Shown here: positions 1 through 30,430 of the stretch, one piece after another
How the letters are laid out: the number at the start of each line of letters is the position of its first letter
How positions within the stretch are numbered: the stretch's first letter is position 1
Source of the DNA: a virus
Taxonomy: Duplodnaviria > Caudoviricetes
IMG/VR virus record: IMGVR_UViG_3300005683_000068
Coordinates: 1-64,000 of that record
Length of the DNA stretch: 64,000 nt
Direction: 5' to 3' (one strand)
Notes under the pieces: model-generated
Databases searched by the model: none
Told to the model about the DNA's origin: nothing
Seen by the model: only the letters and a program-made list of their open reading frames with translations
Translations under genes and position numbers: made by a program

Positions 1-242
1 TCCTCATCATCCCAATCATCAATATCAGAATTATCCTCCTCATCCCCATCTTCTTCGTCCTCGTCCTCATCACCAGCATTCAATTCATCTCCTACCTGGT
101 CACAGATTTTCTTCATGTAAGGATCAGAAACACCCTCACCATCTGGCCAGCGGTAATCTTGTATATCAAGATTACCTTCATCATCAATGTCTGGATTATA
201 AAGTTGCTCTTCACTTAGTTTTGCGTCGTGTCTTACCGCCAT
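1..242 (-). CDS. Acidic (D/E-rich) hypothetical protein, runs off the left edge
   Basis: Not in the ORF track. ATG at 242 is preceded by GGAGG; frame is open to the edge (MAVRHDAKLSEEQLYNPDIDDEG...DEDEDEEDGDEED). Confidence 0.7.
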   Translation of the reverse strand, partial: MAVRHDAKLSEEQLYNPDIDDEGNLDIQDYRWPDGEGVSDPYMKKICDQVGDELNAGDEDEDEEDGDEEDNSDIDDWDDE

Positions 243-3200
243 TGTTATCCTCCTTCTTAGTTGAAGATAATGTGTTTAACCAAGGCTTCCATACTTCTGG
301 ATGAATATAACTCTTGAAAGCCATTCCAGGAGTATTATTTAGATGATCTGATACCATACCAGATAATTCAAGTTGTGCCTTTTTAAGAATTTTTACGTCC
401 TTTGCTTCATCACCAGTAAATTCAGGATGCTCATACTCATCAATTAGCTTTCTGGCAATCTGAGTGGCTTTGATTGTTCGGAGGTCCTTCACTGATATAT
501 CTTCAGAACCACCTACTTTATTGAAAATCTTTTTGAGAACTTCATTTGCATGACTGCTATTAGCCTCAGTAAATACAAAGTCTTTAGGCATTTTACCGGC
601 AAGCATTTCTTTTAGGAATGCTACATTGGTAGGATCCTTCACAGTTGTTTTGTTCAACACACCTTCCTTACCAACAAATCTCAATTGAACAGCATCCCCT
701 TTGATTGTGCAATGTCTGGCTTGGAGGGACGAGATTCCAAAATGACCATGCTTTACAGAATCAGCACTATCAGTTGGTCGTAATCCAGTCTCTCTAATCA
801 AATTAGCAATAGCGGCAGCCTGCCGTTCCCTAGATGAGAGTTGTTTCGTTTTCATTGCCTTGTCTAAGTAGGAATGCAATTTTGATAGATGAGGTTCAAT
901 AGTTGTAATTCTTTCCCACTTCTCATCCTGATTTTCTTCTCTTGTTTCTTTGGTGTATCTAGCCTGGTAAGAAAACCGTCCAGGTGTTTTCTCACTTTCT
1001 TGTCTCCAAGACAACAATGACTTCCCTTTGAGTTTTTCAGGCGGTTGTGACAAATCAGCCACCTTAATATCACTCATTGAAATATATGCTGGAGGAAATG
1101 TTCCTTCCATATCAAGGTCTTTAAGCTTCTTCTTTAGTTTCTCAGGCATTTGAGAACCGGGAGCGGTTCTTTTATCAGTAGGAAATCCATTAGCTTTTAG
1201 ACCAGCCTTAATATGCGGAGGTGGATCATAAGACTTCTTTGGTTTTTCTGTTGTCTTGTTTTTCTCTGATTTCTTAGCCAGTTTGGGATTAGCTTTGATA
1301 TGCCGAGCAACACTACCAGCCCGTAATTTTGCTTTGTCCTCTGGAGTCAAGGATTCAATAACGTCTTCTGGTATCCATTCTCCAGGAGCATACTTAACTC
1401 CATGAATAGTTACACCCCCTGGAGGAGCATGAAGTTTTCCTTGAGCATCACGCTTACCAAATCCCACACTCTCCTCATGCTGCTCAACTTTCTTCAATTT
1501 AGTGTAGTAATGTGGATCCTCAGTCAAATGGTCCATTGCTATTTCAAGAGCAATCTTAGGATCATTAGTATGCTCCATTTCTACTTTGATTCCCATTGCT
1601 ACTTGCTCTGGATCAAAGTCTTCTGGTTTGGCTTTATCCCCTTTACCTCCAGGAATCTTATCTTCCCTAAACTGTGCTGCTCCAGTTAAAGGAATAAAGG
1701 TATGGGTTCCATTCTTATCACTAAATACCAACCGATTGAAGACAGCGGCTTCACCATACAAACTATTTAGTTTGTTGGAATAATAAGGACCCAATCCAGG
1801 CTTCACATACGCAATAGTGATATGTGGTTTGTAGTCCGGGAATGTATCAGTGCATTCTAGGTTATCAGAAATGTACTTGTTGAGTTTTCGCAAGCCGCTA
1901 GATTCAACTTCCAATTTGACTACATCATAATCAGGCTTACCGTCCTTGTTTCTGCTTTCAAAGAAAGAACATCTGCCAATTTGAATTGCTACAGGAGCCT
2001 GTGATTGAACAACAGTACGGACTTCGTCCGCATCCTCAGTATGCAATCCATATTTAACTGTTACATGAGGATTGAGTACTCGCCCTGTAATACTATCATC
2101 CCCATAATCTGTTGGTTGCAAATCTACAAGATCAATCTGATCTCCAAGTTGACGAATCTTAAAGGTTAGATCACCAACAAGATTAAACTGGGTGCTTGAA
2201 AACTTGTGGGATGCTTCACCAAATTGAATGTTACCTTGTGGAGCAGCTTCTTGTTGTTGTGGTACTTCTTGCGGTACTTGTGAAGGCTGCCCACCTATCG
2301 CTCCACCTCCCATCGGACTACCAGCAGCATTTCCAGCAAATGATTTCACTAGATCAACTGGATCAATTTCAAACTCAACATCACCTCCCCAGTTCAACCA
2401 AGCCAAAGGACGCAAAACCTGATCCCGAATACATTGAACAATATCACTTGCTTCATTGTTACACACACTCAACAAGACAAGGAAAGGAATACTCCTGCCT
2501 GAGTAACCACTACCTGTATCTGCCGCTTTTACTACTTCAATTGGAACATCCGCACCTTTAAGAATATCATCATCACAATAATCAACCCAATTGAAAATAT
2601 CACTAGCACCAGGAACACCAGTTGGAGGATTATATCGAGTCAATTCTTTACCATTACTATCCAATAGTAATGGCAGAGTCAATGCAGCCCCAGATAATCT
2701 ATTCTCTCCAATTTCCCTCATCAAATCACGCCACGGAATAGTTTGTCCATTGGGCAATTGGGCATTTACATTCGGAGGATACCAAAAAATATCTCCAATA
2801 TAAGCATCCTTAATCATCCTCAATTGAACAAGCCGTTTGGCACCATGATCCATCCATTTCTCATACCAAGCAGGATATTGCCGACGTGTAACAGCATGAC
2901 CATACGGGCTGCCAAACTCCTCATTGAACTTCATCCACAAACACTGTGGATGGAACATAGGAATTCCTTTGATACGCTGTCCACATAGTTTATTCTTATA
3001 TTCAAGGGCACGGGCATCCTCTGGTGCAAAGTCTTTAAGCCCAGATACATCAATCAATCCAGTATGTTTATTCATCTTAAATAAACATTGGAGAGGTGCG
3101 AATCCCCATTTCTTTGCACTAACAACCCTAGTACGATGTTGATTCCAAAGGTAGTTCCATTGCTTCTTTACCCAAGTAGCTACTCTTTCATTCTTTGCCT

Positions 3201-3522
3201 TTACTGTAACCTCCAAAGCAGACAAGGCAGCATTGCGAACATTCAAGCTAAAATTGATAATAGGATCACTTGTCAACATCATTCTAGCAGTCCACAACCT
3301 CCACAAAGGAAGTCGTTGGACAAACAACTCACCATAGTAAGTATATCTTGTGCTCTTATAGTTCTCAGTAGGATCAGTAGTAAGAATCTGCTCCTTAATC
3401 TGAGAACGACTACGCCGACGTGTTTTCACTTCCATTGAAGTGGTCTGAGCGTCAGTATTATCTCCAGCAACAAGGATACTCTTATCCTTAAATTTATCAG
3501 TCTTTCCATTTGATTTGCTCAC
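211..3522 (-). CDS. Portal protein (Mu gp29/DUF935-like) fused to Acb1-like 2H phosphoesterase, DUF5661-like domain and type IB DNA topoisomerase
   Basis: aa1-~400 portal-like (KKWGFAPLQ, FGSPYG, YPAWYEK). 2H motifs HVTV and HITI (FPDYKPHITIAY). GIKVEMEHT...IAMDHLTEDPHYYTKL. TopIB catalytic set TGLR, FVGK, KDLRT, LNNT, KSYIHP. Confidence 0.8.
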   Translation of the reverse strand: MSKSNGKTDKFKDKSILVAGDNTDAQTTSMEVKTRRRSRSQIKEQILTTDPTENYKSTRYTYYGELFVQRLPLWRLWTARMMLTSDPIINFSLNVRNAALSALEVTVKAKNERVATWVKKQWNYLWNQHRTRVVSAKKWGFAPLQCLFKMNKHTGLIDVSGLKDFAPEDARALEYKNKLCGQRIKGIPMFHPQCLWMKFNEEFGSPYGHAVTRRQYPAWYEKWMDHGAKRLVQLRMIKDAYIGDIFWYPPNVNAQLPNGQTIPWRDLMREIGENRLSGAALTLPLLLDSNGKELTRYNPPTGVPGASDIFNWVDYCDDDILKGADVPIEVVKAADTGSGYSGRSIPFLVLLSVCNNEASDIVQCIRDQVLRPLAWLNWGGDVEFEIDPVDLVKSFAGNAAGSPMGGGAIGGQPSQVPQEVPQQQEAAPQGNIQFGEASHKFSSTQFNLVGDLTFKIRQLGDQIDLVDLQPTDYGDDSITGRVLNPHVTVKYGLHTEDADEVRTVVQSQAPVAIQIGRCSFFESRNKDGKPDYDVVKLEVESSGLRKLNKYISDNLECTDTFPDYKPHITIAYVKPGLGPYYSNKLNSLYGEAAVFNRLVFSDKNGTHTFIPLTGAAQFREDKIPGGKGDKAKPEDFDPEQVAMGIKVEMEHTNDPKIALEIAMDHLTEDPHYYTKLKKVEQHEESVGFGKRDAQGKLHAPPGGVTIHGVKYAPGEWIPEDVIESLTPEDKAKLRAGSVARHIKANPKLAKKSEKNKTTEKPKKSYDPPPHIKAGLKANGFPTDKRTAPGSQMPEKLKKKLKDLDMEGTFPPAYISMSDIKVADLSQPPEKLKGKSLLSWRQESEKTPGRFSYQARYTKETREENQDEKWERITTIEPHLSKLHSYLDKAMKTKQLSSRERQAAAIANLIRETGLRPTDSADSVKHGHFGISSLQARHCTIKGDAVQLRFVGKEGVLNKTTVKDPTNVAFLKEMLAGKMPKDFVFTEANSSHANEVLKKIFNKVGGSEDISVKDLRTIKATQIARKLIDEYEHPEFTGDEAKDVKILKKAQLELSGMVSDHLNNTPGMAFKSYIHPEVWKPWLNTLSSTKKEDNNGGKTRRKTK

Positions 3523-4063
3523 AACAACTTCTCCCTTTGTAGCTCTCTGAGTTTGACCGCCTCACGGGCTCTAATCAAAACCTGAGTTGCTAATTCCATG
3601 TTATCAGTTCTGGCAAGAATCTGATTGTATAATCCTTCAGGTGTTTTGTTATCTAACAGTGATAATTGCTCTTGTTCGTAAGCAAGCACAAACGGGATAT
3701 TAGCTATCCAACTTTCCTTCTCCTCTATTGTCCACTGCTGGAAATCACTGGGGATTCCTGGATAGTAACGGGCAAGGAGACAATCGCTTCTAATTTTTTT
3801 TTGCGATCATCCAATGATTTAATAATGCAACGATTTATACACTCAGTAAACTCCAACGCCATATTTTCAGCAAGATCACTATTACTCAACGACAATTTTT
3901 CAGCTAAGTAATCTATGATAAATCTGACCCGTCCACTTTGGGTAGGCTGCTGCTGAGCCTTCTCCAACATTCTACGAGCCTCAAAAATGTCAACCTTTAC
4001 TGAAGTTTCTCCATCCGGTGTTGTTAGTGTCAAAAACTCAGGTTTGCTAAGATGCAATTCCAT
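3519..4063 (-). CDS. -1 frameshift extended product (tail assembly chaperone GT-like)
   Basis: A9 slippery run at 3794-3802 (CGC AAA AAA AAA TTA). The -1 frame stays open (IRSDCLLARYYPGIPSDFQQW...REKLL) to a TGA overlapping the portal GTG. Confidence 0.7.
3725..4063 (-). CDS. Putative tail assembly chaperone (G-like, unshifted product)
   Basis: 112-aa ORF with a slippery site near its 3' end, in the structural operon. Confidence 0.55.
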   Translation of the reverse strand: MELHLSKPEFLTLTTPDGETSVKVDIFEARRMLEKAQQQPTQSGRVRFIIDYLAEKLSLSNSDLAENMALEFTECINRCIIKSLDDRKKKLEAIVSLPVTIQESPVISSSGQ

Positions 4064-4072
4064 ACATTCCTC

Positions 4073-5968
4073 TTACAACTCTAGGGGTTTAGAAGGATCA
4101 ATTGGAGTGGAAGACGACAACACAGTCCCAACATCCGTCTTGGCTTTATTAGGAACTCCTCGCAATCTGTAAATGTCGTAGCCTTTCACTTTGTAAACTT
4201 TACACCCAAATACCTCAAATGACAACTGAGGTGGTGTTTTCTTGCTTCCAACACAATCTAACTCACAATCAATATCAACCCCACCATAACTCTTAATCAA
4301 TGGAAAAACAGGGTAAGCACCATATCTCAGTGCTGCAAATTTAACAGCAACGTAAACAACAGGCAACCCTTGTCTTTCTGATATGTGTGCGTCCTGAGAA
4401 CTGACTGTTACTGGAGGGGCCGTTTCATTTCCGGGAAGCAAATCACCAGGAGATCCGACTTCAGAAAACACTGCTTGTTTATGATAATTGTTTCCTTCAA
4501 CTCTTCTCACTTCAATCTCTAACCCATAAGACAACCAACCAGCACTATGTAAGACCTTCCCATCTGCACCAGTAGGTAGTGGGGGGCATGTCATGGAAGG
4601 AAGGCCTTGTGACAACACAGGTCTTGGAACACTACTAGTATCACCTATTGTTTTCTCTTGTACCCCAGAACAATAATTCAAATAATCAACATCTTTAAGA
4701 ACAGTTCCAATTCCAGACACGCCTCTATTATTCCACAAAGGCTTCATTGAATTAGCCCAAGCATTATAATCCTGACTACCAAAAGAATCATAAACAGGAG
4801 GGCCTGTCAACGTGGTATTGAAGCCTTCAAACAAGTTACACGAATTCAAATTCTCCCAAAAGTTGTTTTGTACCATCCAAGTTATACTAGCCGAAGTGAC
4901 CCTACAATCATCAAACTTTTGATTTGACATTGTAAAATTCACAGGAATAACAACAATGGACTGCCCGCTGCTAGACCTTCTCACCGTTCCATCTGGATAA
5001 TGTGTAAGCTGCCTTTGTTTGCAAATCGCAGCCATTATGAAATACTGACCGGCTAGAGAACGAGCCACATAAGGACTGGTCTTGAGCACCATACTCATAG
5101 TCACAAATCCTTGTGACATGGTTGCGTTTTGAATGCCGCCACTGGAACTAAATTGCAACTCACCTTTTGCCAAAGTCATTCCAGTAGGTAAATCATCCCC
5201 AGGAAGATATTGGTCTATTACATTAAAGATCAGTTCGCTTTTATCATCAGTTTCATTCCAAGTATTACTAAGTCTTCTGAAATTTGGAGGGACTGTAATA
5301 GTCAACTTATCCCTCATACGATCAGCAGTAATTGTTCTATTGTTATTTTGGGTGTTTCGTTTTTGAACCACCTTAATAGAACCGCTTATGTTTCTTGTTG
5401 TGATACCTTCAAAATCATGGGACCAAGTGGTTGTGTAATTAAATGCCATCCAATACTGATAATCATAATCTGCTTCAACATCATGGCATTCAGAAGTAAA
5501 AAACTGCACAGACCAAGTCAATTCCCAGCAAATATCACTAATAGGAACCAGACTAATTTCTATAGGTTTAGGGCCATTATCCAAATCAGAATAAGTAACA
5601 ACAACTGCTTTAGATGAGTCATATCCAACGGCTCCCATACCTAAACCAAGATTAGATACTCTCAAAATCCTTCCTGGAGTTCCTAATAGTTTTCGTAGTG
5701 CTATCATATTCTCACCAAGATTAGAAGGGTTATCCTGAAACACCCAACATCTTACTGTGAGAACATTATCTATACCGATGATGTTTACATTTGCTCTGTC
5801 ATAACGAAATCTCTGTTTCATTTCATACATAGGAGGAGTTGCCCGAAAAACAACATTCCCTGATCCTATGATAGCAGTAACAGAAGCCGCATCACTTCCT
5901 CCAAACTGGACACCGTTGTATTCAACAGTATGGAAAGACAAAGGGGCGTTGAGAACATTGGTGGCCAT
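4073..5968 (-). CDS. Putative virion (tail/baseplate) structural protein
   Basis: 631 aa, beta-rich composition, directly after the tape-measure-like gene; no family recognised. Confidence 0.45.
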   Translation of the reverse strand: MATNVLNAPLSFHTVEYNGVQFGGSDAASVTAIIGSGNVVFRATPPMYEMKQRFRYDRANVNIIGIDNVLTVRCWVFQDNPSNLGENMIALRKLLGTPGRILRVSNLGLGMGAVGYDSSKAVVVTYSDLDNGPKPIEISLVPISDICWELTWSVQFFTSECHDVEADYDYQYWMAFNYTTTWSHDFEGITTRNISGSIKVVQKRNTQNNNRTITADRMRDKLTITVPPNFRRLSNTWNETDDKSELIFNVIDQYLPGDDLPTGMTLAKGELQFSSSGGIQNATMSQGFVTMSMVLKTSPYVARSLAGQYFIMAAICKQRQLTHYPDGTVRRSSSGQSIVVIPVNFTMSNQKFDDCRVTSASITWMVQNNFWENLNSCNLFEGFNTTLTGPPVYDSFGSQDYNAWANSMKPLWNNRGVSGIGTVLKDVDYLNYCSGVQEKTIGDTSSVPRPVLSQGLPSMTCPPLPTGADGKVLHSAGWLSYGLEIEVRRVEGNNYHKQAVFSEVGSPGDLLPGNETAPPVTVSSQDAHISERQGLPVVYVAVKFAALRYGAYPVFPLIKSYGGVDIDCELDCVGSKKTPPQLSFEVFGCKVYKVKGYDIYRLRGVPNKAKTDVGTVLSSSTPIDPSKPLEL

Positions 5969-5970
5969 TT

Positions 5971-7416
5971 TTAATCACCCAAAGATTCAGTCGTAATCCA
6001 AGGTTTTATAAAGTCCGGGAAGTCTTGAAGTTCATATTCTCTCCAATCCACCTCTGGTACTTGTGGGATAATATCCATGAAACCGCCTTGTATTTTTTCA
6101 TGGATGTTTACACCAGTTCCAGCATTACGAAGATTATCAATAACCTCCTCCCTAGCCCTTCTTAACTTCTCCCATTCTTCTCTAGCTGCTTCGGGACCTT
6201 CTCTAATTGCTATAAGAACATTGTTCCACGAATCCTTCCAATTAACAAAGAATTGCCCCCACCAATTATTAAAATCCCTCCATGAATCAGAAACTCTCAT
6301 AGCTTGCGATTCTGATGCAGCAATTTGAGGGCCATATTCCTGAGCGGTTTGTATGTTCCGCATCATGCGAGCAATATGAGATTCAGTTACAGCTATTGCT
6401 ACCTCTGGACTGTAACCCATTGTATCTTGAACACGCTGATTCTGAAAATAAGAACCAGCAGCAACACCAGCAGCCCCAATAGCACCAACAGCAGCTACAC
6501 CTCCCAATACTGTAGCTCCTATACCAACCGCTGTTGAAGATAACCCCAATGCCGCAGCAGCTTCGGCGGTAGCTGTAGAAGCAGCAGGTATCGCTGGACT
6601 AATAGTGCTTGTTATAGCTTGTCCTACTGGTCCGGATACATTCCCTGCTATGTTATTTATTCTACTTAATGCGTTCTGGACACCGTAGGAATCAATCTTC
6701 CCCTGCTCACTATCTCCTTCCCCTTGTACTGGAGGGGCTATTTTTTCTGATTCAGATATTATCTGTTCTTTTGTAAGAGGGGGTGGTTTTGGTATGTCAT
6801 ACTTGGCAGCACGCAACACCTCGTCTAATTCCTGTTGCTGCCTCATCCTAGCAGCCATTTCATCACGATGATCCTGAATCCGCGATTGCCTATCAAGTTC
6901 GGCTTGTTGTGCTAAGGAATCATTGTATTCCTTAGATGCTTGGCGTATCCGTTCCTCATCATTCAAATCTGTTTCTAAAGAACGTAAATATGGATCACGA
7001 TATGGTGCCTTTGGGAACTCATAACGCCGCATCTCATCCAAGATGTCATTTAAGGGTCTAGCCTCAGTGCGTATTTTTACATCTACCTGTGATTCTCTCT
7101 CAGCTATTTTTTGAAGATAGCTTTGAATTAAAGCATCATCTCCAGGTCTAGATAACTGATACGGAAAACTAGATTCCTGTGAAGGTTCTACTGAAGTGGC
7201 AATTGAAGGTATCTGAGGAATGGCAACAACCTGTTGCCACATTTGCCCTTTATCAACAAAGGCACCAACACCACCAGCAGACGTGTAAACCCCCTGGATC
7301 CCTTGAGCGTAATTAAGATCAGAGGGTGGATTGGGAAGGGGTCCAGTAGAACTATAACCAGTAGCCCCTACAGAAGATTCATCTTTGAATCTGATTACTA
7401 AGGAGGCTTCTTCCAT
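5971..7416 (-). CDS. Short tape-measure-like / ejection protein
   Basis: Helical charged segments plus an Ala/Gly hydrophobic stretch (AAAALGLSSTAVGIGATVLGGVAAVGAIGAAGVAAG); follows the tube-like gene. Confidence 0.45.
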   Translation of the reverse strand: MEEASLVIRFKDESSVGATGYSSTGPLPNPPSDLNYAQGIQGVYTSAGGVGAFVDKGQMWQQVVAIPQIPSIATSVEPSQESSFPYQLSRPGDDALIQSYLQKIAERESQVDVKIRTEARPLNDILDEMRRYEFPKAPYRDPYLRSLETDLNDEERIRQASKEYNDSLAQQAELDRQSRIQDHRDEMAARMRQQQELDEVLRAAKYDIPKPPPLTKEQIISESEKIAPPVQGEGDSEQGKIDSYGVQNALSRINNIAGNVSGPVGQAITSTISPAIPAASTATAEAAAALGLSSTAVGIGATVLGGVAAVGAIGAAGVAAGSYFQNQRVQDTMGYSPEVAIAVTESHIARMMRNIQTAQEYGPQIAASESQAMRVSDSWRDFNNWWGQFFVNWKDSWNNVLIAIREGPEAAREEWEKLRRAREEVIDNLRNAGTGVNIHEKIQGGFMDIIPQVPEVDWREYELQDFPDFIKPWITTESLGD

Positions 7417-7417
7417 T

Positions 7418-8044
7418 TTAGGTATCGTTAAAGAATCGTGCTTGACTAGTTGCTAGACCACTGGCATTGACAATGGCAGAATCTGCTTCATCTATCACAG
7501 GAAGACAAGCCACAGCTACAACCACATTTCGTTCCATTGCCCCCATAATAATTTCTAGATTATGAGTAGGAAGCACTGATACAAAAGGATATGTCCTAGT
7601 AATAGGTCCATAAGTTGCGGCTTGTGATCCAGGTAACGCAGTTAAAGTCAATGGGGCACAGAATTGATGCAGCATCGTTCCAGGACGAGGCATCAAACCA
7701 TGATCAGGATTTGCAGTTAGGGAGGGTTTTCCTGTAGTGGTGTTAAAACCACCAAATGGCCACAAGAATCGTCTTGTATTAGTAGTCCACTCCTTAATGG
7801 TAAGCAGTCCATAGCAACCACCTCCTTGAATCACCCAATCAATAATAGTCTGTCCCCATTGACTAGCCCTGACAGGAATGCCTTCCACTCTTTGTTGGAG
7901 ACGAACCACACCTTCCAACAAACCTATATTGAGAGCACCTCCAGTTAATTGGGAACTGCCCCAAGTAGCATGATAAGGTCCAGAAGGAATCAGAGGTCCG
8001 TCATTAGTAACCCCAGCACCGGAATAAATAATACTCTGTGTCAC
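7418..8044 (-). CDS. Putative tail tube protein
   Basis: 208 aa, G/T/P-rich beta-type sequence (LNIGLLEGVVRL...WGQTIIDWVIQGG); position after the neck genes. Confidence 0.45.
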   Translation of the reverse strand: MTQSIIYSGAGVTNDGPLIPSGPYHATWGSSQLTGGALNIGLLEGVVRLQQRVEGIPVRASQWGQTIIDWVIQGGGCYGLLTIKEWTTNTRRFLWPFGGFNTTTGKPSLTANPDHGLMPRPGTMLHQFCAPLTLTALPGSQAATYGPITRTYPFVSVLPTHNLEIIMGAMERNVVVAVACLPVIDEADSAIVNASGLATSQARFFNDT

Positions 8045-8054
8045 AAACTAACTC

Positions 8055-8351
8055 CTATGCAAGAGGATTCACATGAAGACCACGAGATTCCAAAGCCCCA
8101 GCAATGTCCTCATTGGTTACATTTACAATTGATGCTCCTTCACAACCATCAACAAAAACTGCCAGTTTGTGAAGATCATCCAATTTCATACCATCAAGAA
8201 CATAACCATAATGAGACAAACCAAATTCAGGATTCCAAGCAACAGGACTAACCTTCAAAGGCTGCCCTTTCAAAAACCCAGTCAAACCACCCTGATCCAA
8301 AAGATCAGCATTGGTATTCGCCTTACGAACTAAAAGAATCTTCATACACAA
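8055..8351 (-). CDS. Hypothetical protein
   Basis: ORF tightly packed in the operon. Confidence 0.6.
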   Translation of the reverse strand: MCMKILLVRKANTNADLLDQGGLTGFLKGQPLKVSPVAWNPEFGLSHYGYVLDGMKLDDLHKLAVFVDGCEGASIVNVTNEDIAGALESRGLHVNPLA

Positions 8352-8367
8352 CTCCTCTTTTTGTCAA

Positions 8368-8871
8368 TCATTTACACAATACATCACCAGTCTCAGGATT
8401 GAATTCAAGAGGCTGATCCGGCACAGTCTCTTGAAGCATCTTCATGGACACTTTGATGTTGTCTGTGAAGTATTCGGTATTGCGTTCCGAAAATTGGATC
8501 GCATGTTTGATCTGACTGTGTTTGGCATGATACTGCTTGATATTACTCACCAGATCATGCTGACGTTGGGTTTGAGGTTCAAATAGCTTGAGCATTGTTT
8601 GCTCCTGTTCAGAGTGTGCGGTTGTTTTAGGAAGTCTATAACAACCTTGTGAAGAAAACATGCATTTTCCACCTTGCTTTTGAATATGATTAGCCAATGA
8701 CTTAGAACTAACACCTTCAACATCAAAGTGGTTAATGTGAGACAACGTGTTTTGTATTGTTCCTACACGCTTGTTCTTTTCCTTGATATGTGTTGTGTGT
8801 TCTCCGTCGTGATCTAATTCAAAACCAGCCTTCTCAAGATGGTTTTTATGTGCATCTAGCCAGTGTGGCAT
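8368..8871 (-). CDS. His-rich putative internal head protein with QFSE motif
   Basis: His-rich; contains IQFSE (8485-8496), the motif shared with the portal and protease linkers. Confidence 0.45.
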   Translation of the reverse strand: MPHWLDAHKNHLEKAGFELDHDGEHTTHIKEKNKRVGTIQNTLSHINHFDVEGVSSKSLANHIQKQGGKCMFSSQGCYRLPKTTAHSEQEQTMLKLFEPQTQRQHDLVSNIKQYHAKHSQIKHAIQFSERNTEYFTDNIKVSMKMLQETVPDQPLEFNPETGDVLCK

Positions 8872-8875
8872 GTTG

Positions 8876-9445
8876 TTACCCTTGTGCTCCAGAACGTAAG
8901 TTCTGTTCTCTGTCTAAACCACGGAAAGTTAATACATATCCAAACCATGCCGATGTTGAATTATCATCGGCGATGCCTAATGTTTCAATTCTGCCGCGTC
9001 CTTTGTAAAACAACGGACGATTGAACTGTACTCCCATTTCTGAATTTGCAAGACTGAAGTAGGCATTCAATGCTTGCATAAACAGGTAGTTGGCGTGTAA
9101 TCCATTCCAACTTGGTAACATCACCCTTTGATAATAATCCGTCAGCATGAAGGATCGTATCAAATAAGGATCATTGGTTATTTTCAGTGTTCCTCGAAGG
9201 TCTTTGATTGCTAGATGTTCCGGTCTCATCCAAATAGCAACATTGATCCTCAGTATTTCTTTGATGCTATCGGTAAGTTCGTTTCCAACTTCTATACCAG
9301 CATCATCAATTGCAATGTAAAAATTACCAGCATCTAATGCCGGTTTGTATTCATACTGGACACCACATTCATTTGCCTTCCAACCATTCTTCTTCCTAAA
9401 CCAATCCTGGCAGTATTCCAACGCCATAGACATTCCCATACTCAT
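8876..9445 (-). CDS. Putative tail terminator/completion protein
   Basis: Size and position after the Mu gpG-like gene. Confidence 0.4.
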   Translation of the reverse strand: MSMGMSMALEYCQDWFRKKNGWKANECGVQYEYKPALDAGNFYIAIDDAGIEVGNELTDSIKEILRINVAIWMRPEHLAIKDLRGTLKITNDPYLIRSFMLTDYYQRVMLPSWNGLHANYLFMQALNAYFSLANSEMGVQFNRPLFYKGRGRIETLGIADDNSTSAWFGYVLTFRGLDREQNLRSGAQG

Positions 9446-10269
9446 GGCGTTCCTCCTTGATAAATTTCACCTATACGAGCCAGTCCAGAAATAGCCATGC
9501 CAAGAATTTGTCTCCACCAATCATTAGGAAACTTCTCAGGCCACAATCTACGTCGTTTGTTTTTGTTCTTAGCATTATGATGGTAACTCATGTACTTCAC
9601 ATTTGTACCAACCACAATACAATCTGGCTCAACATCAAATCTTTGTTCACTGCCACCCTTACCTCCGGGTTTCTCATACTTAGCTTTAGGACCATTTTCA
9701 TATAAGATGCCTGGAGTTAAACTACCCCGCCCGCGTCCTGTGTCCACTAGAATCTGTACTTTGCGATTACCATACACTTCCAACTTAGTTTTAGCCCCAC
9801 GCTCCTTCATAATAATCCATGCAACAGCAGCGGCATGGGACTTGGCTTCTTGTTCTGTATGTCCCCTCAACATATATCTAGCAAGATAACGTGAGTAGAT
9901 TTGTCTCCATTCTTTATACTGCTGAGATGTTAGTAATCCTTTCTTATTACCAGGGCCATAATGATGAGCACGCCCTAGCCCTGCTTCTTTCTTCAAAGAA
10001 GCCATTTCGCCTTGACCAAATCTACGTCCGTAAGCAAGATATTCTTTAGAGAGAGGAGGCCAAACAGTTCCATCTGCACCTTCAAAACCACGAGACAGTT
10101 CTTCAAAGTTGAACTTTACTAGTTCCAAAACCTTAAAACCAATCCGTAGCTTAAAGCCTTCAGCTATTTGGTTTTCATCACTAATGCGGCCAGAAAGAAT
10201 CCCAGGCAAGTTGCGGATTAGAGCACGCAAAGCTGGTTTGTTATCTGAAGTAATAACAGCTTCTGGCAT
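9442..10269 (-). CDS. Phage virion morphogenesis protein (Mu gpG / tail completion-like)
   Basis: Motifs WPPLS..Y, ILVDTGR.RGS, VGTNVKY..YH. Confidence 0.7.
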   Translation of the reverse strand: MPEAVITSDNKPALRALIRNLPGILSGRISDENQIAEGFKLRIGFKVLELVKFNFEELSRGFEGADGTVWPPLSKEYLAYGRRFGQGEMASLKKEAGLGRAHHYGPGNKKGLLTSQQYKEWRQIYSRYLARYMLRGHTEQEAKSHAAAVAWIIMKERGAKTKLEVYGNRKVQILVDTGRGRGSLTPGILYENGPKAKYEKPGGKGGSEQRFDVEPDCIVVGTNVKYMSYHHNAKNKNKRRRLWPEKFPNDWWRQILGMAISGLARIGEIYQGGTP

Positions 10270-13652: not shown

Positions 13653-16112
13653 CTAACGACGCATGGTAGTCGGCGGAGGCAGTTGCATACTGCCCCTAGG
13701 ATTCACAAGTCCAATTGGACTATGTTTCACAAGTTCTTCTGCCCTAGCAGGATCAACGTGCATTGCTCCTAGCAATTGTCCATCGGGTGTTGTTTCAAAG
13801 AATTGTGTTGAATTTGCTTCCTCACGATATACAGCATTCCCATAAGCATCAGTGCCTACTTTAATCTGACCCTTTGGTGATTCTGCTTCTTTTACATCCT
13901 CTACCTCAAACTGGAGTGAAGGAGGCAAACTAGATGCCAACATCTCTGCAACCTCAACACCTGAGAAGGATGGTTTTTCCTTACCTTCAGAAAACTGGAC
14001 ACAGTTATCACTTGATTGATAGGAAGCAAGCAACCTATTCTTTAGTGTGGGTGGAATTTTGGCTGCATTGATTTTTGAAACAGCCTCATTTCTTGCCGTC
14101 TCATTACGGAGGTTTTCTTTCTCCTCCTCATATTGCTGAGCCTTTAGTTCAGCTTGCTTACGTTTTTCCCTCTCCTGCTGCAATTGTTCTTGCTCACGCA
14201 AGATTGCTTGTCTAACTCTAACCGGCAACGCGGCCAGGTCCTCTTCAGAGAATGGCATGGGAGCATCAGTGACATTTGCTTTGTTGTCTTCATCGTCAGG
14301 CTCCGCCTCTGCTTCAGCTTCCATTTCAGCCTTAATGCTAGAGTTAATAGCAGCAAGCAGAACATCAATACTGTGTTCATCATCAAAACAGAAATCACTA
14401 GGAAGAACAATACCTTTCTGGTTAAGACCAGCAAGCACAGCAGACAACTTGCTCTTGTCTGTTGCCTTAGGAGGCATGTCCGGATTGGTGTTCACATCCG
14501 GCTGCATTGTCTCAGGAGGTGTTGAGGATTCTGATTCGGCTGATTCCTCAGTATCCAAATCCTCAGCCTTCTTCTTCTTGGTCTGTTCATCCATTGGATT
14601 GTTGTCCTTTGGATCTTCCGCGTGCTGAGATTGCTTGTTCACTTTGCCTCCCATTTTCTTGTAAACGGATGTTACGACAGCCCAATACTTCCTGTTACCC
14701 TCGCCGCCGTATCTGTTGCCGATCACCTTCTTGGCTTTGGACCAGATTCCTTCGTCCTCTACCCAAGGGGCAGGATTACCAGTGGAACCAAATGGTTCCT
14801 TCATCATGTGCTGGCCACCATGTTGTTTATGGAACATGGCTTCTTCACCTAGTTCATTATCTTCATCTGTCAGTCCAGCTTCAATCTTAGCTAGGACTTT
14901 ATTGTGTTCTTGGACTGTGAGGTTGTCCCAATCAATACTTTCATCTTCCCCACTGGGATTGGTAACACCTGGCTTGTGAGCATCTACACTGAGGGAATTC
15001 TTATAGTGCTCATCAGGAGGCATGGTAGAAGGCGGTGTTACGTTATCCATATCCTCACCGTGTTGGGACGCTAAGGACCTCAAGTGGTTGTGAAGATCGG
15101 TATGTCCTTGACCTTCTTTAACCAGCTTGCCTCCATTGTAGTGATTCCAAGAGCCGTTGGAATAATGCTCTATCAAGCCATGCTTACCATGAGAAAAACT
15201 CCTCATGGTATCGGCTTTGCCCGTCCCCAATTGCTTAGAGGACATCTTAAATCCGTGCTTCTGAAGCAGCTTATGTCCAGTGTTACCTTCTTCATAGAAC
15301 TGCTCAGAATCATCCATATCCTCACCGTGTTGGGAATCTTCCGCTGTATGGTAATGAGCATTTTTGCAAAGATGATCGCCAGTACAAGTAATGTTTCTGG
15401 CACTCTCACTATTGAACTTACCATGCAATTTCCCACGGTAAGTTGTCTGTTCTTTAGAATATCGTTTTGGAATAATGCTGGAAAATGTTGCTGATTTGCC
15501 AGCGTGTTCCCCACTATGGAACTTCACATGGAATGTTCCATAGTGATCTTTGTTAGCAACTGGTTTACCAACCTCATTGAATTGCTCAGCATCCAATGGT
15601 TCACATTCACCCTCAGTGAACTGCCAGCAATCCTCGCTCAGGGCAAGGGTTTCAATCTCGCCCTGGTGAGGATTACCCGGCAACGGAGTAAACGCGAAAT
15701 GACGGATGACTGGTCCTTCATACACACCAGCCTTCTCACAGACATAGTGTGGACGGAACTCAGGACTGGTAAATCTTAGAGTACCAGCTTCCTTAGCTTT
15801 CAATACCGCTTCTGGAACATCTTTTGCTTCCCAAGCGATAGCTCCATCCTCAATTGCTACACTAGTAATCCAGCCGGCTCCCTTTCCATCAGCAGAAGCA
15901 AACTGCTCAGTTTCATCATCACTTGCATTGATAGGAGCGTGCTTCAAAAGCAATGGAATAGGGACACCGGCCTTGATTGCTTTGTTCGTTCCTTCAACAA
16001 AGGAACGCAATTTTTCCAAGGAGAGTCGATGCCCACGATAGACACCAGGGCCAAAAGCTGATTTTTGTTTAAGGATTGCCATGTGATTATTATATGTCCA
16101 ATGGTTTAACAA
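13653..16112 (-). CDS. Prohead protease (Mu gpI-like)-scaffold polyprotein with inserted modules
   Basis: N-term GPGVY, PLLLKH, GWI, FTSPEF, HFAFTPLP; C-term coiled-coil scaffold; eight Q[FHY]xE motifs. Confidence 0.75.
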   Translation of the reverse strand: MLNHWTYNNHMAILKQKSAFGPGVYRGHRLSLEKLRSFVEGTNKAIKAGVPIPLLLKHAPINASDDETEQFASADGKGAGWITSVAIEDGAIAWEAKDVPEAVLKAKEAGTLRFTSPEFRPHYVCEKAGVYEGPVIRHFAFTPLPGNPHQGEIETLALSEDCWQFTEGECEPLDAEQFNEVGKPVANKDHYGTFHVKFHSGEHAGKSATFSSIIPKRYSKEQTTYRGKLHGKFNSESARNITCTGDHLCKNAHYHTAEDSQHGEDMDDSEQFYEEGNTGHKLLQKHGFKMSSKQLGTGKADTMRSFSHGKHGLIEHYSNGSWNHYNGGKLVKEGQGHTDLHNHLRSLASQHGEDMDNVTPPSTMPPDEHYKNSLSVDAHKPGVTNPSGEDESIDWDNLTVQEHNKVLAKIEAGLTDEDNELGEEAMFHKQHGGQHMMKEPFGSTGNPAPWVEDEGIWSKAKKVIGNRYGGEGNRKYWAVVTSVYKKMGGKVNKQSQHAEDPKDNNPMDEQTKKKKAEDLDTEESAESESSTPPETMQPDVNTNPDMPPKATDKSKLSAVLAGLNQKGIVLPSDFCFDDEHSIDVLLAAINSSIKAEMEAEAEAEPDDEDNKANVTDAPMPFSEEDLAALPVRVRQAILREQEQLQQEREKRKQAELKAQQYEEEKENLRNETARNEAVSKINAAKIPPTLKNRLLASYQSSDNCVQFSEGKEKPSFSGVEVAEMLASSLPPSLQFEVEDVKEAESPKGQIKVGTDAYGNAVYREEANSTQFFETTPDGQLLGAMHVDPARAEELVKHSPIGLVNPRGSMQLPPPTTMRR
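15045..15335. repeat. 24-bp exact direct repeat (15045-15068 and 15312-15335) encoding SQHGEDMD
   Basis: atccatatcctcaccgtgttggga occurs twice, 267 bp apart. Confidence 0.9.
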
Positions 16113-23760: not shown

Positions 23761-24183
23761 CTAATCCTCCTTAGGGATTAAAGGGGTTAATGCCGAATCA
23801 GATCGGCGTGCTTTCAACGTGAATTGTTCTTTAGGTAATTTGATACCTAATTTTTCAGCGAGTCCAATTCCATCCACAAAGGTATTTGTCTTATCCATAA
23901 AATCATGCCACTCTGACTCTCTAACAAACGCCCTGGCTTGATTCCCGCTGGCAAATACCATTACTACATAGTAATCACAGTCCTTAGCCGCCTTCACGGC
24001 AGCCGTTGCTTGTTTCATCATCTTGGCTATTTCAGAAACCTCTCTAGCATCATCCTTCTCTATACTCCCCGAAGTTTCTTTGCTGTGTATTGGATGGTCC
24101 TTGATTTTAGGACCTTTGAATTTTGGAGCAAGACGTAACTTAGTCTCGCGGCTGTTTAATTTTAATCTGCCCATGCTTAACAC
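23761..24183 (-). CDS. Hypothetical protein, partner of the PAPS-reductase-like gene
   Basis: C-terminal DYYVVMVFASGNQARAF...FVDGIGLAEKLG. Confidence 0.6.
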   Translation of the reverse strand: MLSMGRLKLNSRETKLRLAPKFKGPKIKDHPIHSKETSGSIEKDDAREVSEIAKMMKQATAAVKAAKDCDYYVVMVFASGNQARAFVRESEWHDFMDKTNTFVDGIGLAEKLGIKLPKEQFTLKARRSDSALTPLIPKED

Positions 24184-24850
24184 CCCATTTAGCTCTCAAC
24201 AACTCCGCACGTTGTAGCGGAAACCACTCTAGTATCTTTTTGTAGTCCTCAGGGTAATCAGTTCTAATAGGCTCAAGAAACCTATAGTCTATACCGTCGA
24301 AGCTACGACCAAACATCCTGTAATCATCTGGAACTGGAGTTTTGTTTTGTGTGAGTATATTAACCACATCCTGTTTTGTGGCTTGCCATATAGGGTAGAT
24401 TCTATTCTGTATTCTCCAGTGTTTAATTCGCATTCTTCGCAAGACACTATCCCTAACTCTGATTCCTACTGCAACAACGGTATCTTGCGGTACTCCTGCT
24501 GTTATACATACTCCTTTTGCTACGTCTGTATATTCAAAGCGAGGAAGTTCCAAGTAATTTATTACTGGTATCCTATGTAAAGGTTGTGCTGTTCCTGTCC
24601 TCAACATCTGGTAAAAATCAGGATGTACCGTAATATAAACATGCTGTTTGAAATGCTCTTCACAGTGTTTAATTGCCTTCCTAACAAATGACAATCCTGG
24701 AACTATTTCCATATAGAAAGGGATTACTTTGATCTTGTAGTGTCTCAATACCTCCCATAATGCCAATGAATCCTTACCACCAGAGAAAGATAACAATACC
24801 TGTTCCTGTTGTTTCAAGTATTCTACAATCTCTGATTCTGGAAGGTACAT
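24140..24850 (-). CDS. PAPS reductase-like adenine nucleotide alpha-hydrolase (PP-loop)
   Basis: LLSFSGGKDS PP-loop, GIRVRDS..RR, YPIWQ. Confidence 0.8.
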   Translation of the reverse strand: MYLPESEIVEYLKQQEQVLLSFSGGKDSLALWEVLRHYKIKVIPFYMEIVPGLSFVRKAIKHCEEHFKQHVYITVHPDFYQMLRTGTAQPLHRIPVINYLELPRFEYTDVAKGVCITAGVPQDTVVAVGIRVRDSVLRRMRIKHWRIQNRIYPIWQATKQDVVNILTQNKTPVPDDYRMFGRSFDGIDYRFLEPIRTDYPEDYKKILEWFPLQRAELLRAKWGVKHGQIKIKQPRD

Positions 24851-28925: not shown

Positions 28926-29117
28926 TCAATGCTTCTCACTTTCTAAACCAGAAGCAGCTCTATCATCATCCAATGTCAATTCCGTTCTCCTGATCAAAAC
29001 ATCTTTTGGAGCCTCTATAGCTAATGAAACCCTGTGTCCATCAATTTTCGTTACTCGCACCACAATACCACCACCAATCACAATACTCTCACCAACCCGA
29101 CGCGATAGCACTAGCAT
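28926..29117 (-). CDS. csrA: Carbon storage regulator CsrA/RsmA
   Basis: MLVLSRRVGESIVIGGGIVVRV...VSLAIEAPKDVLIRRTEL. Confidence 0.92.
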   Translation of the reverse strand: MLVLSRRVGESIVIGGGIVVRVTKIDGHRVSLAIEAPKDVLIRRTELTLDDDRAASGLESEKH

Positions 29118-30430
29118 TGAAATTCCTTTCTTAAAGCAGATTCAATGTCACTAAACACCTGACCCCAACACCCTCGATAACGCTGTCTGAACAGCCTCAT
29201 TGAGGGATACCACGGTGAATCATGTCTATCGAGCAACCACCTCCAATTTGCTACATAAGGTAAACACACCCAAACAGGAACACCCATCGCACCAGCCAAA
29301 TGAGCGATTGAAGTGTCATTAGTAATAACTAAATCCATGCTCATCATTACAGCAGCCGTATCCATAAACGACTGAGCATCATACTCTTTCAACTCTGCTG
29401 AAGGATTGATCATTCCATTTTGGAGTATGTCTTTCTGTAAATTAACAAGCACAAAAGGACTAACTCCAGGAGTGCCTACTAAGGGCTGAAACAACTCAAC
29501 TGGTATATCTCTAGCAGCCATCATACCAGTATAAATCTTGATTCCAGGATATGCCTGTGGGGCCTCACCTCCCCTTCCCTTCCAATTAACTCCAATCTTG
29601 ATCTTGTTTAATCCTTGAAAGTAGTCCTTCCAGTAATCAACCAGTTCTGGATTAGCTTTAATATAACCAACCTCCCCAGGAATATCCTCAACATACTGAG
29701 TTAATATGCCAGGAATAGACATTAAAGGAATCTGATAATCAAACTCAGGAAGAACATCATCATAAGTAAACAGATCAATAAAAGTCTCTGACAGCAAAGA
29801 CACAAGCTGCTTCTGTACCTCACTTATAACCTTAAAGCCACATTCATTCTCCAGCATCCTTACATATCTAATAAACTGCATTGTGTCGCCCAATCCTTGT
29901 TCAGCATGAACAAGGATTGTTTTCCCTTCTCCTGATTCTCCCCACCATCTAGGTTTATTGTATCTCGGATCAACTGCCTTCATGCCTACCGGAGGCCGTG
30001 CTTCATAATAAGCAAAGCCAGTCTCAAAATCACCAAGATGAAGCCTCAATTCCCCAAGGTTATAGAACAACAGCAAATGATTAGGGTCAATCTTAATACC
30101 CTTCTCATAACAATCCTCGGCAAGTTCATACTGCCCCCATTCATAAAAGTTGCGGCCACGGTTGCACCAAAAATGAGGATTGTTAGGTTCCAAATCACAA
30201 GCCTTTTTGTAAGACTCGTCTGATTCCTCAAATTTATCTTGGAGATGCAAACAAAAACCAAGATTGTAAAACAACACACCTGATTCAGGATCACAATCAA
30301 TTGCTTGTCTTAATAAAGTCTCAGCCCTTACCAAATTATTAGACTTCATGTGACGCAGGGCTCTGTCACAATGATAAGCAGCAACTTTCCTACGCTCTAT
30401 TCTTGTCATTTGATCCTCTTCTTCTTTCAC
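29111..30430 (-). CDS. TPR-repeat glycosyltransferase (GT-B, GT9-like C-terminus)
   Basis: N-terminal TPRs; AEQGLGDTMQFIRY, MDLVITNDTSIAHLAGAMG, WRWL...SPWYPSMRLFRQ. Confidence 0.85.
   Translation of the reverse strand: MKEEEDQMTRIERRKVAAYHCDRALRHMKSNNLVRAETLLRQAIDCDPESGVLFYNLGFCLHLQDKFEESDESYKKACDLEPNNPHFWCNRGRNFYEWGQYELAEDCYEKGIKIDPNHLLLFYNLGELRLHLGDFETGFAYYEARPPVGMKAVDPRYNKPRWWGESGEGKTILVHAEQGLGDTMQFIRYVRMLENECGFKVISEVQKQLVSLLSETFIDLFTYDDVLPEFDYQIPLMSIPGILTQYVEDIPGEVGYIKANPELVDYWKDYFQGLNKIKIGVNWKGRGGEAPQAYPGIKIYTGMMAARDIPVELFQPLVGTPGVSPFVLVNLQKDILQNGMINPSAELKEYDAQSFMDTAAVMMSMDLVITNDTSIAHLAGAMGVPVWVCLPYVANWRWLLDRHDSPWYPSMRLFRQRYRGCWGQVFSDIESALRKEFQC

Follow-up and report, generated by a model that had tools for sequence, protein, structure and literature searches.

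The DNA analysed here, referred to as the window, is a stretch of 64,000 nucleotides comprising positions 1 to 64,000 of IMG/VR virus record IMGVR_UViG_3300005683_000068 (Duplodnaviria; Caudoviricetes), a genome of 74,217 bp with a CheckV completeness of 100%. A single open reading frame (ORF) of 1103 codons is located at window positions 211-3522 on the minus strand, and its predicted product joins a Mu-type portal protein to a 2H phosphoesterase, a DUF5661 module, and a type IB topoisomerase (TopIB). The ORF begins with a GTG at 3522, which overlaps the TGA of a 56-codon upstream ORF, and ends with a stop at 211-213. No internal stop is present, whereas about 75 stops in the same frame were expected from shuffled bases of the ORF. 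Pfam calls were judged against the curated cut-off of each family, and four families passed along the protein. The PHROGs assignments agreed with those of Pfam, giving a portal (PHROG 113), an "RNA ligase", and an unnamed family over the TopIB part. The features of the ORF are as follows, with the basis of each in parentheses.

211-3522, minus strand: portal-cargo precursor, whole ORF, 1103 residues (identical product in Logan contig SRR2106649_1225)
2323-3522, minus strand: Mu-type portal core, residues 1-400, folded from about residue 34 to 400 (Pfam, PHROG 113, AlphaFold2 fold)
2227-2322, minus strand: Gly/Gln/Pro-rich disordered linker, residues 401-432 (predicted local distance difference test, pLDDT, below 50; sequence)
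2215-2226, minus strand: border motif 1, QFGE, residues 433-436, candidate protease site (motif scan)
1675-2214, minus strand: 2H phosphoesterase module, residues 437-616 (PF13563 at 32.3 bits; AlphaFold2 pLDDT 90; VIA-align)
2059-2067, minus strand: HxT motif 1, H486-V-T (sequence)
1816-1824, minus strand: HxT motif 2, H567-I-T (sequence)
1663-1674, minus strand: border motif 2, QFRE, residues 617-620 (motif scan; low-pLDDT linker)
1483-1662, minus strand: DUF5661 module, residues 621-680, three helices (PF18905 at 45.8 bits; AlphaFold2 model)
1471-1482, minus strand: border motif 3, QHEE, residues 681-684 (motif scan)
1138-1470, minus strand: leader module and Lys-rich linker, residues 685-795, net charge +10 (phmmer of modules against relatives)
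214-1137, minus strand: TopIB, residues 796-1103, with a short N-domain containing FPPAY (PF01028; PDB 6z01 and 2f4q)
778-780, 667-669, 478-480, 334-336, and 307-309, minus strand: TopIB catalytic residues R915, K952, R1015, N1063, and Y1072, respectively (alignment to 2f4q)

Identification of the N-terminal part as a portal rests on a fold search, since a portal-family sequence profile compared with PDB sequences returned poly-Gln noise only. Within the whole protein, Portal_Mu (PF06074) matched residues 79-222 at 27.6 bits (cut-off 23.9); the domain score alone was 20.4 bits in a six-frame search. The AlphaFold2 (AF2) model of residues 1-432, which was built from an alignment of 54 relatives (pLDDT 78), was compared with the PDB using Foldseek and yielded 130 matches at E <= 0.001, the best at 8e-12 and Mu gp29 at 1e-7, and all of the top PDB matches listed were portals. 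PF06074 had this single match in the 74-kb genome, and PF04860, PF05133, and PF06381 had none; a second, cargo-free portal was ruled out by these genome-wide searches. As modelled, the ORF encodes the sole portal protein of the phage, and it is of the Mu gp29 type.

The second module contains two HxT motifs, H486-V-T and H567-I-T, and 2_5_RNA_ligase2 (PF13563) matched residues 483-574 at 32.3 bits (cut-off 27). The AF2 model of residues 437-700, which spans the 2H and DUF5661 modules (pLDDT 90), has the 2H fold. VIA-align matched the 2H part to many 2H structures at Z scores from 15.3 to 11. The nearest were TT0787 (15.3), drCPDase (14.8), YjcG, and E. coli LigT (13.9), and the Burkholderia phage BCSR5 phosphodiesterase (12.3), Acb1 (PDB 7t26; 12.2), and the Penguinpox phosphodiesterase for cyclic GMP-AMP (11.9) scored lower. 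Among relatives of the protein, three different portal families carry a fused 2H module.

The original prediction had called this module Acb1-like, a description that was sustained in part. The second HxT block, FPDYKPHITIAY, aligns with YPDYRPHITLSY of phage FBB1 Acb1 (7t26), although at E 0.16 only, while the module as a whole scored 21.1 bits with the Pfam Acb1 family (PF23474), below the cut-off of 27 and over profile positions 69-110 only, and lies nearer to structures of the LigT/ThpR type. The orthologous modules of relatives scored 24-30 bits with the same model, and two of them passed (P0009, 28.4 bits; P0015, 30.2 bits). Because of the score below cut-off, the nearer LigT-type structures, and the range of the orthologues, the module is regarded as a LigT-sized 2H enzyme bordering the Acb1 family. 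With the likeness to Acb1 being borderline, action against cyclic-oligonucleotide-based antiphage signaling systems (CBASS) becomes one option among several, possible but clearly short of even probability.

An alternative is that the 2H module has a role other than anti-CBASS activity, acting instead as a phosphodiesterase on RNA ends or 2',3'-cyclic phosphates (as LigT/ThpR, in RNA repair or in an RNase-like role), or that it degrades 2'-5' oligoadenylate-like or cyclic oligoadenylate signals. This alternative was judged to be evenly balanced with its negation. In its favor are the ranking of the nearest structures, the Pfam score, and a search of the BFVD viral models, in which proteins of the "2'-5' RNA ligase superfamily" came first and named Acb1 models ranked 16th and lower; in addition, viral 2H phosphodiesterases form many clades with differing specificities (bioRxiv 10.1101/2025.08.21.671373; PMC13728456). 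Weighing on the other side, Acb1 was the structural match of highest identity (21-22%, with 135 of 137 residues aligned), its second HxT block is nearly identical, and two orthologous modules pass its cut-off.

DUF5661 (PF18905) matched residues 637-681 at 45.8 bits (cut-off 27) and was modelled as three helices, with an alignment depth near zero at this position, and the matches returned by fold searches with the model were taken up by the 2H domain; DUF5661 was mentioned in no paper found by a full-text literature search. The basic leader that follows recurs in 26 relatives, where it was located by phmmer ahead of a large enzyme cargo. It had no family match in Pfam, and residues 685-800 gave no usable match in the ESM Atlas.

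Topoisom_I (PF01028) matched residues 859-1052 at 78.4 bits (cut-off 23.7), or 82.5 bits in a six-frame search. In phmmer comparisons with the PDB, the closest enzymes were archaeal 6z01 (E 1e-12) and Deinococcus radiodurans 2f4q (E 1e-11), with the variola enzyme at E 0.008. Residues R915, K952, R1015, N1063, and Y1072 correspond to R137, K174, R239, N280, and Y289 of 2f4q, and this pentad is kept in the TopIB modules of P0002-4, P0070, and P0101, as is the short N-terminal segment FPPAY...GR.S.Q.RYT among relatives. A tyrosine recombinase or telomere resolvase in place of TopIB was ruled out by the Pfam and PDB matches and by the Lys of the pentad. Judging from its residues, the enzyme is catalytically complete, of bacterial type, and apparently active. 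For the TopIB fragment, the net charge is +23.

The architecture drawn in the original prediction was confirmed: one uninterrupted ORF, encoding an N-terminal portal, a 2H domain with two HxT motifs, DUF5661, and a TopIB with an R-K-R-N-Y set bearing the Asn of bacterial enzymes. Its coordinates and domain limits (including residues 437-616 for the 2H domain) were accurate, and the strand, which had not been stated, is minus. Contig 1225 (37,136 bp) of the Logan assembly of SRR2106649, an independent assembly, encodes an identical 1103-residue product with all junctions covered. The fusion of portal and cargo was considered real with high confidence.

A search of 5.8 billion proteins returned 111 matches, about 70 of which share the portal core at 47-74% identity and differ in their C-terminal modules. 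The cargo found in relatives includes MuF, sigma-70 regions 2 and 4, GNAT, Zeta-toxin kinase, ADP-ribosyltransferase (ART), ParB, InPase, and intein modules in addition to 2H, DUF5661, and TopIB. The order from portal to TopIB recurs in three relatives from other sequencing runs; P0002 and P0003 have the architecture portal-DUF5661-InPase-leader-TopIB, and P0004, which was seen in two runs, has portal-GNAT-leader-TopIB. TopIB is found in portal-free proteins as well: in P0070, the gene of which comes after one for an HK97-type portal, it is joined to NUDIX, and in P0076 it is joined to 2H. When the whole protein was compared by tblastn with 50,697 phage records, no full-length relative was found among isolated phages, and the matches were to single domains only.

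A complete sigma-70 (regions 2 and 4, 28-60 bits) was observed as portal cargo in P0005, P0009, P0010, P0012, P0013, and P0015 (e.g., L034:2501-5341), in the slot that is occupied by TopIB in the present protein. A contig of ERR3094279 (L037) from an unrelated phage has a head block consisting of an HK97-type portal, a 263-residue gene, a NUDIX-TopIB protein, an ART protein with an acidic leader, and a short MuF. Since this block carries them with an HK97-type portal, the same cargo modules appear to move between head systems.

Among GTDB genomes, 13 of the 15 relatives of the portal core (L014-L028) were found in metagenome-assembled genomes of Planctomycetota/Pirellulaceae, and so the host of the phage is probably a planctomycete bacterium. 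One of these relatives (L026) is probably a prophage, since it lies inside a contig of 1.02 Mb. The portals in the Pirellulaceae genomes are bare and approximately 400 residues long, which indicates that the cargo is an addition to the portal.

The modules of the precursor are separated by a short recurring motif. The protein has exactly three copies of Q-[F/H/Y]-x-E, at residues 433, 617, and 681, each at a module border, and the border sites fall in low-confidence linkers of the AF2 models. In 66 relatives the motif was counted 244 times, compared with 22 expected from shuffles (11-fold enrichment); a copy marks where the portal core ends in 54 of the 66, one immediately follows the 2H module in 31 of 37 relatives, and all 10 relatives with DUF5661 have one where that module ends. 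Across the genome, it was found three times in the portal, nine times in a protease-scaffold protein, and three times in MuF, and at most once in any other ORF. The location of the protease-scaffold gene is as follows.

13653-16082, minus strand: protease-scaffold polyprotein, 809 residues from the Met at 16082, within an 819-codon ORF at 13653-16112 (hhalign against Mu gpI homologues; nine motifs)

The N-terminal 165 residues of this polyprotein resemble the Mu protease gpI. In hhalign, a profile of 159 relatives matched one built from ten Mu gpI homologues (probability 96.1%, E 3e-9, 102 columns). The family has an invariant His/Ser/His, of which a His and the Ser line up with DYEH and YLS in Mu gpI, and the ESM Atlas gave Mu-like_Pro as a lead. 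No match to the 165-residue domain was found among isolated phages. The protease-scaffold is itself a cassette polyprotein, with relatives of approximately 400 to 1717 residues in which the gpI-like N-domain is constant. MuF is encoded by the gene next to the portal gene, and a weak gp36-like match, below cut-off, was found. Together, the portal, MuF, the gpI-like protease and scaffold, and the weak gp36-like match indicate a head module of the Mu type. The portal gp29 of Mu virions lacks its last 124 residues, a loss attributed to protease I (PMC11915804), and the prohead protease of SPN3US cuts after Glu at AXE sites and trims the portal as well (PMC7411985).

The MuF gene begins with a segment of opposite charge to the TopIB fragment and is divided between the two ends of the record as follows.

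3-242, minus strand: acidic leader at the start of the next gene, with 33 Asp/Glu in 80 residues, continuing over the record ends into the MuF-domain protein
72586-74217 of the complete record (G000; L003:8586-10217), minus strand: MuF-domain continuation at the other end of the record

The product of the MuF gene opens with approximately 95 extremely acidic residues, the last of which are LQFNE. Both ends of the record encode a DWDDE repeat and overlap there, and the frames do not join exactly; this acidic repeat probably broke the assembly. Since both ends encode the repeat and the MuF gene spans them, the "linear" record probably represents a permuted or circular genome. Homologous acidic leaders (44-46% identity; Y..PD..G..DPY..KI...D.LN followed by poly-D/E) begin the gene after TopIB in the contigs of P0003 and P0002, and the same leader, fused to an ART protein, follows the NUDIX-TopIB protein of the unrelated phage described above. 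These leaders, each after TopIB cargo, are located at L030:3444-3773, L033:4060-4209, and L037:5014-5200. An acidic leader was thus present after TopIB in four of four readable cases, and it was lacking in three of three TopIB-free relatives, in which MuF comes after a portal with sigma-70 or InPase. The acidic leader may serve to block the basic TopIB fragment up to the point of delivery.

These observations are consistent with a mechanism in which the portal is made as a precursor, the inward-facing C-terminus of which would carry the 2H enzyme, DUF5661, and the basic leader with TopIB into the capsid. With the assembled portal, each module would be present in the prohead at approximately 12 copies, and a prohead protease of the Mu gpI type would cut after the Glu of Q-[F/H/Y]-x-E at the borders, as gpI trims the Mu portal. 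The freed enzymes would leave the head with the DNA at infection. In the cell, a nucleotide or RNA signal of the host would be degraded by the 2H enzyme, with cyclic-oligonucleotide immune messengers as one candidate, and TopIB, presumably independent of Mg and ATP, would relax the injected DNA in support of early transcription or replication. Vaccinia TopIB is packaged in the virion and aids early transcription. Before delivery, the acidic leader of the next gene may hold the basic TopIB fragment inactive. Cleavage, packaging, ejection, the substrates, and the role of the acidic leader are inferred, and the complete sequence of cleaving, packaging, and ejecting was judged to be somewhat better than an even proposition. 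That the cargo is cut free in the prohead is suggested by the border motifs, the gpI-like protease, the trimming of Mu gp29, and the precedent of SPN3US.

The delivery of 12 copies per virion, as put forward in the original prediction, remains plausible from the stoichiometry of the portal, although the border motifs and the gpI-type protease suggest a polyprotein from which free cargo is released rather than one fusion. The original prediction had also assigned to TopIB the relief of torsion during packaging, ejection, or early transcription. Here the border sites, the gpI-type protease, and the trimming in Mu, all of which point to a cut polyprotein, make a role at the portal during packaging less likely than one after ejection, which is favored.

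Several points weigh against this mechanism. Three of its steps, namely cleavage, packaging, and ejection, all rest on inference, and a folded fragment of approximately 420 residues would have to unfold for passage through the tail. The N-domain of TopIB is short. The motif that follows the 2H module stands at a fixed +1 offset and could belong to the domain instead of being a site. With regard to the protease, no Pfam family, Mu-like_Pro (PF10123) included, matched the protease-scaffold or ten distant relatives, and the protease profile compared by hhalign with a single Mu gpI sequence reached a probability of about 2% only. Q[FHY]xE was not found in Mu gp29, gp30, or T, and Mu therefore gives no basis for the specificity of the site. 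The association of the acidic leader with TopIB consists of four cases against three only and is a lead, not a rule.

One competing explanation is that the cargo stays tethered, so that 12 TopIB domains act at the portal on the torsion of phage DNA during packaging or ejection while the 2H and DUF5661 modules act in the head or after lysis. An uninterrupted ORF with flexible linkers would be expected of such a protein, and a TopIB that is free of cofactors could function within the capsid. However, the border motif is independent of the module it adjoins, is common to the protease-scaffold and MuF, and is enriched 11-fold; protease I removes the C-terminus of the Mu portal; and the same slot is occupied in relatives by sigma-70, ART, GNAT, and Zeta, which are sensible only inside a host cell. 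Permanent tethering was regarded as unlikely.

According to a further explanation, TopIB would be directed against the host, nicking or trapping its DNA as an offensive effector, with the acidic leader as an immunity-like inhibitor. The company of toxin-like modules (ART, Zeta, and NUDIX) in relatives would fit such a role, as would the distribution of the acidic leader, which followed every readable TopIB and none of the TopIB-free cargo. The full catalytic pentad, on the other hand, suits relaxation with competence for religation, and approximately 12 copies per infection would be a small dose for a toxin, which makes this explanation distinctly improbable. Finally, an assembly or gene-calling artefact that joined separate genes, which might be suspected of a metagenome assembly whose record ends in a repetitive acidic region, was practically dismissed in view of the identical ORF in a second assembly, the portal-to-TopIB order of P0002, P0003, and P0004 from other runs (P0004 in two), 1103 codons without a stop where about 75 were expected, and the conservation of linkers and border motifs.

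With the cleaved and delivered precursor as the preferred reading, a broader proposal can be offered for the lineage, tentatively and at slightly less than even probability. In this lineage of planctomycete phages, a Mu-type portal would offer its inward C-terminus as a dock of fixed dose (about 12) for interchangeable cassettes, with a Q-[F/H/Y]-x-E code shared with the protease-scaffold and MuF. The largest cassette, TopIB in some phages and sigma-70 in others, would be injected to start infection and would supply a DNA-relaxing enzyme or a promoter-specificity factor of the phage's own, and an acidic partner may hold TopIB inactive.

The product of the ORF belongs to the phage polyvalent proteins, a class defined by Iyer, Burroughs, Anand, de Souza, and Aravind (2017, PMC5512222), who described portal- and MuF-fused 2H, PBECR, and InPase domains, proposed the portal- and MuF-fused 2H domains as injected effectors, and predicted that the 2H domains degrade defence nucleotides. 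Like the proteins described there, it combines a head domain with several unrelated enzymes in an architecture that is highly variable among orthologues. Processing in that study was ascribed mainly to a zincin-like metallopeptidase (MPTase), which is absent here, whereas Q-[F/H/Y]-x-E and the gpI-type protease are the candidates in the present case. The view in the original prediction that effector fusions to MuF and portal proteins are known accords with that study, in which portal-2H fusions already appear. The portal-TopIB fusion, which the original prediction had not recognized, was likewise not in the papers that could be searched: in the text of Iyer et al. 2017, "topoisomerase" occurs only in the title of a reference and "sigma" is absent, and a full-text literature search found no paper on phage TopIB. 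The new elements are therefore the TopIB cargo (within the searchable papers), the candidate protease code, and the candidate acidic partner, while the portal-2H fusion was already known.

Compared with other systems, the locus shares with the head module of Mu the Portal_Mu family and fold, MuF as the next gene, and a gpI-type protease fused to a scaffold. It differs in that the tail of gp29 has 124 residues without a recognized enzyme, whereas 670 residues and three modules are present here; the Mu proteins lack Q[FHY]xE; and the portal gene is approximately 18 kb downstream of the terminase and not adjacent to it. The nearest functional analogue may be the virion TopIB of poxviruses (vaccinia/variola; PDB 2h7f), which is small, independent of Mg and ATP, present in the particle before viral gene expression, and of the same Arg-Lys-Arg-X-Tyr chemistry, although for the phage enzyme carriage in the particle is presumed. 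The sequence match to it is weak (E 0.008), the fourth catalytic position is Asn and not His, and loading would occur by fusion to the portal rather than as a free core protein.

Acb1 (T4 57B; FBB1, 7t26) has the 2H fold, two HxT motifs, and a nearly identical second motif block in common with the 2H module. The latter, however, is approximately 180 rather than 140 residues long, scores below the Acb1 cut-off, lies nearer to LigT-type structures, and is part of a structural polyprotein instead of a free early protein. A resemblance to cargo processed by prohead proteases, such as the internal proteins of T4 and the ejection proteins of phiKZ and SPN3US with their AXE sites, would lie in a head-internal location and in cutting after Glu, both presumed here; the SPN3US portal is cleaved as well (PMC7411985). 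In T4, phiKZ, and SPN3US, the cargo is encoded by separate genes with targeting propeptides, whereas here it is strung on the portal, with a Q-aromatic/His-x-E motif, and its dose would consequently be fixed at the stoichiometry of the portal.

If the proposed mechanism is true, tailed phages, like poxviruses, bring a particle-borne TopIB into the cell, which would suggest that genomes entering the cell naked generally need their topology controlled, and the portal is a stoichiometric carrier of pre-made effectors. The border motif and the protease would then form a testable rule for the disassembly of polyvalent proteins that have no metallopeptidase. The natural swaps of the family at one position (TopIB, sigma-70, InPase, GNAT, and ART) could reveal which activities matter to a phage during the first seconds of infection, and the portal cargo system could be used as a scaffold by which selected proteins are loaded into capsids. 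The census of 2H proteins would gain a clade between LigT and Acb1 that is borne by a structural protein.

The order of the head genes in the window (211-23590) is unusual: TerS and TerL (23590-21481) are followed by small membrane-type genes, the protease-scaffold, a decoration protein, and the major capsid protein, and then by the portal and MuF approximately 18 kb downstream of the terminase. The neighboring genes at 3-10269 had no match in PHROGs, Pfam, or NCBIfam. These include two large genes just upstream of the portal gene, at 4073-5968 (631 residues) and 5971-7416 (481 residues), both on the minus strand, and a gene of approximately 600 residues holds the same position upstream of the portal in relatives L013, L034, L035, and L036. 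Beyond the terminase, a tetratricopeptide repeat (TPR) protein at 29111-30430 on the minus strand had a weak glycosyltransferase-9 match (21.2 bits, below the cut-off of 22), and a gene resembling 3'-phosphoadenosine-5'-phosphosulfate (PAPS) reductase was located at 24140-24850 on the minus strand (PHROG 2302, E 7e-18).

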